From assembly GCA_023128825.1 (NCBI GenBank), contig JAGMDF010000082.1:8626-72625 (forward strand): DNA of 64,000 nucleotides, given 5' to 3'. Position numbers and translations under genes: made by a program. The notes below the pieces were generated by a model. That model was not told the origin of the DNA. It saw only the letters and a program-made list of their open reading frames with translations, and did no database searches. Of this stretch, positions 10,281 to 61,473 are shown in pieces. Position 1 is the first letter of the stretch. Every line of letters begins with the position of its first letter. Source of the stretch: a candidate division WOR-3 bacterium. GTDB taxonomy: Bacteria; Hydrothermota; Tepidihabitantia; B3-TA06.

Positions 10281-10478
10281 AAGGACACCAGGATAAGAGC
10301 CGCAGGGTTAACCGTCAATGCCGAAAGTAGGGGGGACAGCGATGATGACTCTCGCAGGTCGCCATCCTTATGGTGCAGCTCCCTTACGGTCGCTACCCTT
10401 CGGACGAACCGCCGATTAGCTTTTTTAAGGAAGACTCTGGATCAGCTAGGAACGCCAATCCACTCTTAAGTGTAAAAT

Positions 10479-10566
10479 GGGGTCCCCGCGAGAATGCGAA
10501 GCAGGCTTGCGGGGTAAAAAAACGGGGTCCCCGCAAGGAGGCGAAGCATCCTTGTGGGGTAAAAAA
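10479..10566 (+). repeat. tandem pair of family-2 structured repeats (GGGGTCCCCGC - hairpin with CGAAGCA loop - GYGGGGTAAAAAA)
   Basis: Units at 10479..10522 and 10524..10566 are about 80% identical; inner stems differ but stay complementary (AAGGA/TCCTT in unit 2); abuts the 3' end of tRNA-Gln. Confidence 0.7.
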
Positions 10567-10637
10567 CTGGGGGACAGGGACTCGAACCCCGATTAACTGA
10601 TCCAGAGTCAGCCGTCCTGCCATTAGACGATCCCCCA
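10567..10637 (-). tRNA. tRNA-Gln (anticodon CTG)
   Basis: rc reads TGGGGGA...anticodon stem GCTGA/TCAGT with loop CTCTGGA...T-arm CGGGG-TTCGAGT-CCCTG...TCCCCCA-G. Confidence 0.85.
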
Positions 10638-10650
10638 ATAGTCAAGATTG

Positions 10651-60850: not shown

Positions 60851-60883
60851 GTGTGGAACGGGCTCTCTAGCCCGTTCTTTTAT
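60851..60883 (+). repeat. repeat A, copy 1: GTGTGGAACGGGCTCTCTAGCCCGTTCTTTTAT (9-bp stem, CTCT loop, U-run; terminator-like)
   Basis: Identical 33-mer at 61441..61473; followed by conserved ATTATGCACAGGCTGGAG. Confidence 0.7.
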
Positions 60884-61012: not shown

Positions 61013-61052
61013 GGGGTCCCCGCGGCGTTACGAAGTAACGGCGTGGGGTAAA
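61013..61052 (+). repeat. family-2 structured repeat, copy 3 (GGGGTCCCCGCG-GCGTTAC-GAAG-GTAACGGC-GTGGGGTAAAG)
   Basis: Same conserved ends and GAAG loop as the 10479..10566 units, with a different complementary inner stem. Confidence 0.65.
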
Positions 61053-61359
61053 GTTACACCTCCCCCTTGACGGGGGAGAGTAGGGAGGGGGATTGTCATT
61101 GCGAGCGAACGAAGTGAGCGAAGCAATCTCGTAAAGATGACAAAGGCGTCTCAGTCATTATGAGGAGCGAGTGTTCGTGACGAGCGACATGACACCGAAG
61201 GACGACGCTTGCGGAGTAATCTCATTCTGCAAGGCGGTGCTATGAGATCGCCACACTTCCCCGCCTCTTACGAGGCGGACGGTCGGTCGCGATGACATTT
61301 AATCTTCCCCTCCCCTGGTGGGAGGGGTCGGAGACGAAGTCGACGGGGGAAGGGGAAAC

Positions 61360-61440: not shown

Positions 61441-61473
61441 GTGTGGAACGGGCTCTCTAGCCCGTTCTTTTAT
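61441..61473 (+). repeat. repeat A, copy 2 (identical 33-mer, followed by hairpin CACAGGC-TGGAGA-GCCTGTG)
   Basis: See 60851..60883. Confidence 0.7.

Follow-up and report, generated by a model that had tools for sequence, protein, structure and literature searches.

A GGGGT-tagged, covarying hairpin repeat in candidate division WOR-3 and other bacteria, with features of repetitive extragenic palindromic elements

Introduction

What are the two short hairpin-forming units that stand in tandem between a HEAT-repeat gene and the 3′ end of a tRNA-Gln gene in a candidate division WOR-3 bacterium, and how did such units come to be where they are found? The pair lies in a stretch of 64,000 nucleotides (contig JAGMDF010000082.1, positions 8,626 to 72,625), the whole of which is called the window below. 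A first reading of the bare sequence, referred to here as the original prediction, proposed small RNAs, protein-binding sites or miniature mobile elements targeting tRNA-adjacent sites. The present analysis assigns the units to a family of GGGGT-tagged hairpins that is mobile on evolutionary terms, is not directed to tRNA genes and is neither a terminator nor a known RNA family. The family is probably a non-autonomous miniature mobile DNA element of the kind of repetitive extragenic palindromic (REP) sequences, and an enzyme mobilising it is postulated. A search of the full text of the literature with the element boxes and with a co-occurring repeat found no match except a coincidental one to a yeast mitochondrial GC cluster, and the 45-base hairpin element has apparently not been described before. 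To our knowledge, small palindromic repeats shape bacterial genomes, and a mobilising enzyme is known for the GTAG class only.

Results and Discussion

Units in the Window and Their Structure

The unit is about 45 nt long. Its leader of about 7 nt has (T)C as the last bases and is followed by the unpaired tag GGGGT, an imperfect hairpin of 31 nt and a terminal TA. The hairpin contains 14 base pairs (bp), with a CCCCGC/GYGGGG foot, a variable inner stem of 8 bp and a C-GNA-G apex. The consensus is (T)C, GGGG, T, CCCC, two bases that are mostly GC, eight variable bases, a loop of three bases, eight further variable bases, two bases that are mostly GT, GGGG, T and A, and the flank profile is (T)TC-GGGGT on the 5′ side and TAAA on the 3′ side. 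A covariance model was made from 94 distinct family members and used, with filters off, for a search of the window. Six units were found, all at E ≤ 4e-5 and spanning 4.5e-13 to 4e-5, and the next-best match (E = 0.21) was the reverse strand of one of these six copies. The units and the neighbouring tRNA gene are listed below.

10475..10519, plus strand: unit 1 of the tandem pair, 3′ of the HEAT-repeat gene (44.1 bits, E = 1.2e-8); tag GGGGT at 10479-10483, 31-nt hairpin at 10484-10514 with inner stem GAGAATGC/GCAGGCTT and a GAA loop, then TA
10520..10565, plus strand: unit 2, abutting the tRNA-Gln 3′ end (62.8 bits, E = 4.5e-13); tag at 10524-10528, hairpin at 10529-10559 with AAGGAGGC/GCATCCTT, a GAA loop and G·T in the foot, then TAAAAAAC
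10566..10638, minus strand: tRNA-Gln(CTG), context outside the element, with its own perfect sigma-70-like promoter at 10678-10651
47444..47489, minus strand: diverged unit in direct tandem with the next one (48.0 bits, E = 1.4e-9); tag GGGGT at 47485-47481, foot CCCCTG/TTGGGG, GCGAAGC apex
47492..47538, minus strand: diverged unit, 3′ of a MacB/FtsX-type permease gene (29.3 bits, E = 4e-5); tag with one extra base, GGGGAT, at 47534-47529, hairpin at 47528-47498 with a degenerate apex
52335..52380, minus strand: unit between two co-directional minus-strand genes, in sense orientation (51.5 bits, E = 2.1e-10); tag at 52376-52372, hairpin at 52371-52341 with GGCGTCAT/GTGACGGC and a GTA loop
61009..61054, plus strand: unit in a repeat nest, antisense to the flanking minus-strand genes (58.6 bits, E = 4.5e-12); tag at 61013-61017, hairpin at 61018-61048 with GGCGTTAC/GTAACGGC and a GAA loop

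The three copies of the original prediction (the tandem pair at 10479-10566 and the copy at 61013-61052) are thus where it had placed them and carry the boxes it had given. The total is six, including a copy at 52376-52337 on the minus strand that had been overlooked. What had been described as inverted partial boxes at 47486-47540 are genuine boxes belonging to two complete, diverged minus-strand units in tandem; one of the two has GGGGATCCCC and the other the CCCCTG/TTGGGG foot. Tandem Repeats Finder reported 10474-10566 (period 45, 2.1 copies) and no further tandem array in the window. The pattern CCCCGC-N10-30-GYGGGG occurs in the window seven times against 0.63 expected, and none of 100 shuffles attained seven. 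The 61.0-kb and 52.3-kb copies differ by a compensatory change of T-A to C-G.

Copies were gathered by a scan of GTDB species genomes, which gave at least 109 loci, and by a metagenome scan, which gave at least 120 further loci; the figures quoted for the genome set and the metagenome set concern the matches listed. The model matched 191 times in 100 genome loci, the 120 metagenome loci listed contained 216 copies, and more than 400 family copies were gathered.

Each of the six window copies adopts the 14-bp hairpin, as had been predicted, and the GGGGT strand is always steadier than its complement. With RNA parameters, the four copies tested gave −21.8 to −24.4 kcal/mol for the GGGGT strand versus −16.1 to −19.0 kcal/mol for the complement; with DNA parameters, all six gave −11.0 to −15.2 versus −7.7 to −9.5 kcal/mol. 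In the alignment of 94 sequences, 94.7% of the cells are paired, compared with 81.8% in column shuffles and 40-51% with slid partners. Cells with a double change number 169 versus 46 in the shuffles, and nine of the ten variable pairs covary, being changed on both sides. Because this alignment had been pre-filtered for pairing, the pairing test was repeated, as a control for circularity, on copies picked by their boxes alone. In the box-selected genome set, 52 of the 64 inner 19-mers have at least seven of the eight pairs (1.3% in composition-matched shuffles); in the corresponding metagenome set at least seven pairs are present in 68 of 92 and at least six in 87 of 92. No templating of the inner stems from flanking DNA was detected, as 2 of 50 matched, which is the control level.

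The irregularities of the stem are conserved as well. Among 92 copies of the metagenome set, 83 have G·T as the foot's second pair counted from its inner end, 76 have a GNA loop and 78 have C-G as the pair closing it. The usual lone mismatch, mostly G·A or A·G, is located at stem position 4 or 5, 3-4 bp below the apex; the 5′ arm is rich in purines and the 3′ arm in pyrimidines. The GGGG of the tag is invariant in the 94-copy alignment by construction, and the T after it is present in at least 90% of these copies. Outside the fetch pattern, the tag was found in 61 of about 75 copies, and most of the others are one base off (the untagged count was read by eye, and the list is inflated by opposite-strand duplicates of fetched copies); GGGGT exactly is present in 57 of the 61 tagged copies that failed the fetch pattern. 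Judging by the sequence, it is plausible that the element is a protein-binding site, another option of the original prediction, as the tag, the G·T wobble and the purine·purine mismatch would imply a structure-specific partner.

Units Inside hypF

Related metagenome contigs (L197, L221 and L225, the copy of L225 stopping at the contig end) contain an open reading frame (ORF) of about 810 residues with family units. The comparison with Pfam identified the product as HypF by its acylphosphatase, zf-HYPF, YrdC-like and Kae1-like domains. The observation of in-frame family units at two hypF sites concerns the following loci.

L197, 3521-5950: hypF
L221, 5662-8109: hypF
L225, 1-2121: hypF
L241, 965-3627: hypF

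Relative to HypF of E. coli, the proteins of L197, L221 and L225 hold two additional segments. The first is located in a linker after the conserved DDSV motif; this site is occupied by a sense unit in L197, by an antisense unit in L221 and in the WOR-3 metagenome-assembled genome (MAG) MAG095, and by apparent outer ends of both orientations in L225. The second, of 15 residues (YPTDLLRESAGTPDD), is encoded by an antisense unit and lies in the Kae1-like domain after DGTGYG(P); no other HypF homologue aligned across this site possesses it. One of these homologues, the HypF protein of MAG095 (P0001, JAYELY010000171), is 86% identical, and its gene is exactly 45 nt shorter at site 2. It seems that the hypF units are DNA insertions that occurred in either orientation and were kept where the frame survives in a loop. 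The comparison of the filled and the empty gene is suggestive of a unit that ends directly after TA and has a leader of about 7 nt; since the two genes have diverged, the reading of the unit ends goes no further than that.

The gene calls of MAG095 divide hypF into two ORFs, of 479 and 374 aa, shortly 3′ of the linker insertion site, and this split may be an annotation casualty of the variable linker region.

Turnover at the tRNA-Gln Locus

The window is 89-96% identical to the MAG095 contig L030 across about 5 kb, and the two share near-identical flanks at the tRNA-Gln locus. Unit 1 is the same in both, and in unit 2 of MAG095 (U2′ below) 14 of the 19 inner bases are changed with the hairpin kept. 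The number of units at this locus is 0, 1, 2 or 3 among six relatives, as the following arrangements demonstrate (U1 and U2 are the units of the window).

Window: U1 + U2
L030 (MAG095): U1 + U2′
L169: a single unit made of the exact 5′ half of U1 and the 3′ half of U2, joined in the common GCGAAGCA apex
L173: U1 + U3 + U2, where U3 is a copy of U2 in which a compensatory change has turned G-C into A-T
L157: a U2′-like unit and a duplicated module
L147: the tRNA without an adjoining unit

Unit 1 is identical in L030 and L173, and its 5′ half is present in the L169 chimera. These variants indicate that the arrays change by recombination via the conserved parts and that duplicated units diverge by compensatory change. 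The option of a miniature mobile element is supported by the range of 0-3 units, by the unit swap with MAG095 and by the in-frame hypF units with a 45-nt empty site.

The same dynamics can be read in another way. The units might be DNA sites for a structural or topological protein (such as a nucleoid protein, gyrase or a recombinase), kept by selection and multiplied chiefly by local duplication and gene conversion instead of transposition. Unequal recombination does explain the array dynamics, including the L169 chimera and the L173 duplication, and an invariant tag and foot combined with orientation independence, as well as the fact that no transposase was found, suit a site of this sort. 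Yet the G·T wobble and the mismatch, which would be meaningless in duplex DNA, are conserved; isolated copies at unrelated loci and the hypF copies require de novo insertion, and the distribution is patchy across phyla and not clade-wide. This explanation is considered improbable, though not negligible.

Several further traces surround the tandem pair. A degenerate tRNA-Gln 3′ end (GGGGGGACAGCGATG...) is present 5′ of the tandem units (window 10330-10349 compared with 10566-10587). L157 and L147 show partial tRNA 3′ ends more clearly (tgggggacagggaa..., tgggacaggga...), between duplicated modules of about 230 nt that end in family units. The partial tRNA ends and the duplicated modules resemble the scar that a small element integrating at the tRNA would leave. 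A 16-nt motif, CCTTAYGGTGCAGCTC (window 10366-10400), is present in no copy in MAG095, in one copy in the window and in three copies in L169.

Distribution

The original prediction had considered that the elements might be absent elsewhere; in fact the family is abundant in relatives and occurs in other phyla. Among the matches listed, the carriers with more than one locus are as follows.

WOR-3 MAGs: JAYELY01 / MAG095 (9 loci), JAFGSK01 (3), WJJO01 (2)
Stahlbacteria: SOJW01 (7 loci), DAOVCF01 (8)
Rabbit-gut 'Lapin' Clostridia MAGs: between 3 and 13 loci per MAG
Candidatus Limadaptatus: a variant of 40 nt

Convincing single copies were found in one Thermotogaceae, one Bipolaricaulota and one Zetaproteobacteria MAG. 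About 15 matches in high-GC genomes look like chance, and this is roughly the number estimated for a pattern of this size. The metagenome loci are mostly long sediment-type contigs, some of them 84-95% identical to the window, and IMG/VR gave two matches, one of which is a convincing copy. As far as the sequences tell, the patchy cross-phylum distribution fits horizontal spread.

Long direct arrays were noted in a Candidatus Limadaptatus contig (at least seven units, L047 400-770) and in a metagenome contig (at least three units, L171 1497-1624); both yield spurious ORFs of more than 150 aa.

Genomic Context and Transcription Signals

The copies are essentially intergenic, and most of the seemingly intragenic cases are spurious ORFs made by arrays. 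Of about 138 clusters, about 7 are located no more than 300 nt from a tRNA or transfer-messenger RNA gene, which by a rough estimate is about chance for intergenic DNA, and the other two tRNA genes of the window have no copy beside them. The supposed targeting of tRNA-adjacent sites is therefore not upheld. No preference for a replication strand, judged by local GC skew, was seen. The genes around the window copies are ordinary (a HEAT-repeat protein, a glycosyltransferase, a MacB/FtsX permease, an outer-membrane efflux protein, a TonB-dependent receptor-like protein and NlpC/P60), and the unit at 47444..47489 overlaps a plus-strand ORF, 46560-47447, in the region of its stop.

In co-directional gene pairs, 24 copies are sense and 28 antisense in the genome set, 25 and 35 in the metagenome set, and 49 and 63 in sum, without a bias. 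No sigma-70-like promoter was found upstream of the six window copies by a scan that does recover the perfect tRNA-Gln promoter. Comparison with Rfam showed that only three tRNAs reach the gathering threshold across the window, and a permissive scan of 10400-10650 gave noise. These data bear on the possibility that the element is a host-functional RNA hairpin, GGGGU-hairpin-UA, which would be transcribed and would serve as a protein-binding element or as one protecting or processing mRNA 3′ ends, its spread being secondary. The strong covariation, the G·U-type wobble and the purine·purine mismatch conserved on one strand agree with such a role, as does the steadier fold of the tag strand with RNA parameters. 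Moreover, five of the six window copies are sense and downstream of a gene, and classical REPs are generally known to stabilise upstream mRNA, as is also summarised in PMC3733652. The lack of a sense bias, of a promoter and of an Rfam family speaks against it, as do the occurrence of both orientations within the hypF coding sequence and the copy number at the tRNA-Gln locus, which varies among close relatives. The apex, too, is a C-GNA-G triloop and not the GNRA or UNCG tetraloop usual in selected RNA hairpins (PMC13037366). An independent small RNA, as originally suggested, is not supported by the promoter scan and the orientations, and the broader RNA reading appears unlikely, if somewhat less so than the structural-protein site discussed above.

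As regards termination, the units are GC-rich hairpins frequently located downstream of genes and could be taken for intrinsic terminators, possibly bidirectional. The 3′ flank of the tag strand, however, continues with T, A and then an A-rich run and has no U-tract, and for the GGGGT strand the original prediction was correct in stating that no U-run follows. The opposite strand has a weakly scored terminator-like site only at the junction of the tandem units (GCGGGGACCCCG + T7), just 3′ of tRNA-Gln, and a second terminator flag concerns a partial alternative hairpin at 47514-47495 in one 47.5-kb copy. Copies also occur within an open reading frame and between divergent genes. The terminator reading was rejected: only one of the six window copies was flagged via tag and foot, and true U-tailed terminators are present nearby, for example at 60855-60878. 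It is very improbable that the family has this function.

The most frequent gap from hairpin to hairpin is 14 nt, which gives a period of 45 nt. The shape of the boxes raises the question of relics or solitary derivatives of CRISPR repeats, which would be recognised by a Cas6e-like protein. Repeats of type I-E CRISPR have a CCCCRC/GYGGGG stem and then AU, akin to GGGGT-CCCCRC...GYGGGG-TA, as in the repeats of E. coli (GTTCCCCGCGCCAGCGGGGATAAACCG) and Thermus (GTAGTCCCCACGCGTGTGGGGATGGACCG), and this likeness is the sole point in favour. An array with unique spacers of about 26-72 nt is absent; the linker is constant at 14 nt with a period of 45, and the variable part is self-complementary. The stem of 14 bp with a triloop differs from 6-7 bp with a tetraloop, no cas-like family occurs among the annotated neighbour proteins, and copies are scattered singly. 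An origin from CRISPR is accordingly hardly credible.

Search for a Mobilising Enzyme

REP-associated tyrosine transposases (RAYTs) were looked for in six-frame translations of all loci, which were searched with E. coli RayT, by phmmer, and with a Y1 profile of seven members. The case for a REP-like mobile element rests on the tag, the imperfect hairpin with conserved irregularities, the high copy number, the indifference to orientation, the gain, loss and replacement of units, and the in-frame intragenic copies. Several results weigh against it and are given together here. No Y1/RAYT homologue was found in the window or in 111 genome and viral loci (about 750 kb flanking genome copies), and the only Y1_Tnp gene among the 120 metagenome loci listed, in L161, is flanked by GTAGGGGCCGACC...GGTCGGCCC repeats. 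Clustering of nearby ORFs revealed no protein family enriched beside the copies. Neighbouring copies are direct in 88 cases and inverted in 6, unlike the inverted arrangement of REPs and bacterial interspersed mosaic elements (BIMEs). There is no convincing signal of a target-site duplication, and flanking direct repeats are not in excess beyond array effects. The exact ends of the element are not definable, the sole empty/filled pair being genes diverged by 14%. A preference for convergent over divergent intergenic regions in the genome set (30 versus 12) was not reproduced in the metagenome set (23 versus 23) and is not relied on, because the ORF calls are crude. In the inner stem, G·T exceeds A·C by 54 to 8 in the Clostridia-dominated set, and weakly, by 36 to 25, in the WOR-3-like set. 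Finally, the conserved G·U-type wobble would be at least as typical of RNA, and the choice between a single-stranded DNA (ssDNA) and an RNA fold is accordingly a matter of judgement.

The finding of the L161 Y1_Tnp gene by the same profile serves as a positive control for the Y1 search. L161 3300-3970 is a canonical REPtron, in which a gene for a 154-aa Y1_Tnp (RAYT-like) protein is flanked by inverted GTAGGGGCCGACCTTTAGGTCGGCCC repeats. REPs of this GTAG type, (C)GTAGGGGCCGACCTTNAGGTCGGCCCG, were counted in about 19 copies in 15 loci, and none is in the window. The L161 RAYT was rejected as the mobiliser of the GGGGT family, as its flanks carry a different, canonical GTAG REP.

The ORF clusters near copies are all of housekeeping or paralogous kinds: ABC transporters, EF-G, Xer-like integrases (27% identity), subtilases, tetratricopeptide repeat (TPR) proteins, amidases and methyltransferases. 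At L103 3436-5415, a type II restriction-modification pair (an N6/N4 methylase and a BglII-like endonuclease) is bracketed by inverted family units, and in other loci PIN-domain, ArsR-type and XRE-type genes lie between family units; these bracketings may be due to chance.

Proposed Mechanism

On balance, a REP-like mobile element is the reading that we favour. New units land in intergenic DNA and also beside existing units, in the same orientation and mostly with a gap of 14 nt, building 45-nt arrays; occasionally they land in frame in gene loops or linkers. The arrays grow, shrink and swap units by recombination through the common boxes. A structure-specific partner would recognise the invariant parts (tag, CCCC/GGGG foot, G·T wobble, purine·purine mismatch and C-GNA-G apex) and would be indifferent to the 8-bp inner stem, and owing to this indifference the inner stem would be free to drift while remaining paired. 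By analogy with REP/RAYT and IS200/IS605 systems, the folded form may be single-stranded DNA of the GGGGT strand, moved by an enzyme acting in trans. An ssDNA intermediate is mildly favoured, because the C-GNA-G apex is a DNA mini-hairpin motif whose stability in DNA greatly exceeds that in RNA (PMC13037366) and which recurs, as GCGNAGC, in classical enterobacterial REPs (PMC2817692, Table 1). Protection of 3′ ends, or any other influence on the transcripts nearby, would be a side effect, as with classical REPs.

A bolder, rather doubtful view is that the GGGGT elements represent a third superfamily of tagged palindromic elements, moved by an unrecognised non-RAYT enzyme and crossing WOR-3/Stahlbacteria, Clostridia, Thermotogota and other lineages. 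This enzyme would read the folded single strand, with tag, G·T wobble, purine·purine mismatch and GNA triloop as its cues, and would insert the 45-nt unit either at a set distance from one already present or at naive sites, coding DNA included. If it were true, finding the enzyme would lead to a new compact structure-guided DNA insertion system.

The postulated enzyme and the cross-phylum spread are the main points of interest of the REP-like family. It is sharply defined and occurs in gut Clostridia and in candidate phyla that have been little studied; the insertion of exactly one unit in a conserved gene, with precise ends that cannot be read, distinguishes close relatives, and conserved non-Watson-Crick features point to a specific reader protein. 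Taken together, these properties offer a tractable route to the spread of transposase-less REP-like repeats and to their tolerance inside proteins. On the practical side, the units create spurious ORFs, can split gene calls and may complicate the assembly and annotation of MAGs.

Co-Occurring Repeats

A second structured repeat family is present in WOR-3 and in gut Clostridia (window 61096-61135; L034 2380-2940; L035 2800-3100). It is built of TGTC, a variable stem of 5 nt, GAGCG, a loop, (GT)CGA, the stem's complement and C(CCC), examples being gtcATTGCgagcga...cgaaGCAATc in the window and tgtcATTCCgagcg..gtcgaGGAATcccc in Clostridia; it had no match in the literature. In the Clostridia, GGGGT-tagged units lie within the loop of the second repeat, and 'empty' second repeats are found nearby.

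In the repeat nest of the window, a hairpin of the CCCCCTCCC...GGGAGGGGG type (61056-61095) is directly 3′ of the 61.0-kb family unit. The unit and this type of hairpin, with a common 5′ flank aagatcgcagtatagaactgtcct, recur in MAG095 and Stahlbacteria loci (L008, L045, L099, L103), and the recurring pairing suggests composite mosaic modules. The nest is bracketed by identical canonical terminator hairpins (GGAACGGGCTCTCTAGCCCGTTCT + T-run) at 60855-60878 and 61445-61468, 590 nt apart, which indicates local duplication.

Comparison with Known Systems

Yeast mitochondrial GC clusters (PMC4478555) are, like the family, short, mobile and GC-rich hairpin elements, and an abundant 32-nt cluster has GGGGTCCCCGC...GCGGGG. 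This cluster, ACTCCTTCGGGGTCCCCGCCGGGGCGGGGACT (PMC4478555, Table 1), displays the GGGG-T-CCCCGC...GCGGGG layout seen in the family. The clusters belong to a eukaryotic organelle, however, and have a much shorter, loop-only hairpin and other flanks, and the match is very probably coincidental. Miniature inverted-repeat transposable elements differ in their terminal inverted repeats (TIRs) and target-site duplication, neither of which the family has, being a single hairpin with asymmetric ends. The attC sites of integrons share with it the conserved outer boxes, the variable paired centre, the strand-specific irregularities and the exchange of units between relatives, but their RYYYAAC/GTTRRRY boxes are absent from the family consensus, the units here abut without cassettes, and the lengths are 38-45 nt as opposed to 57-141 nt.

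The ssDNA transposition of IS200/IS605 elements likewise uses a hairpin with a short guide or tag next to it, which is read on one strand. A target-site duplication is not expected there, and none was detected here. The family differs in having no linked Y1 gene and no left-end/right-end pair. The TIRs of TIR-associated Y1 transposases carry a GGGGWSAS motif (PMC3733652), and GGGGTCCC matches it at seven of eight positions, position 7 being different; this is a lead only. The CGTC-tagged REPs (Di Nocera et al. 2013, PMC3733652) are likewise tagged palindromes without an identified transposase that occur in several phyla, including Thermotogae. Their tag and stem sequences are different, they have been described mostly as inverted dimers, and their CGTC end motif is absent from the flanks of the family.

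The RAYT-associated REPs come closest. Both kinds of element are imperfect palindromes of 20-40 nt with a short, unpaired conserved tag at the 5′ foot, with stems that covary between copies and with many, mostly extragenic, clustered copies; REPs inside genes, occasionally in frame, are documented as well (PMC3733652, PMC6006769). The REP tag is a 5′ GT[AG]G tetranucleotide at the hairpin foot (PMC6006769), whereas the family has GGGG and T. Its neighbouring copies are direct tandems at a fixed spacing, in contrast to the inverted pairs of BIMEs and of REP doublets forming hairpins (REPINs), no tnpA-REP was found flanking its copies in the window and the fetched loci, and it has the same boxes in different phyla, whereas a REP family is usually species- or genus-specific. 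Since the GT[AG]G tag, the REPtron linkage and the inverted pairing all fail, the element is not classed as a member of the REPs, although it works like one.

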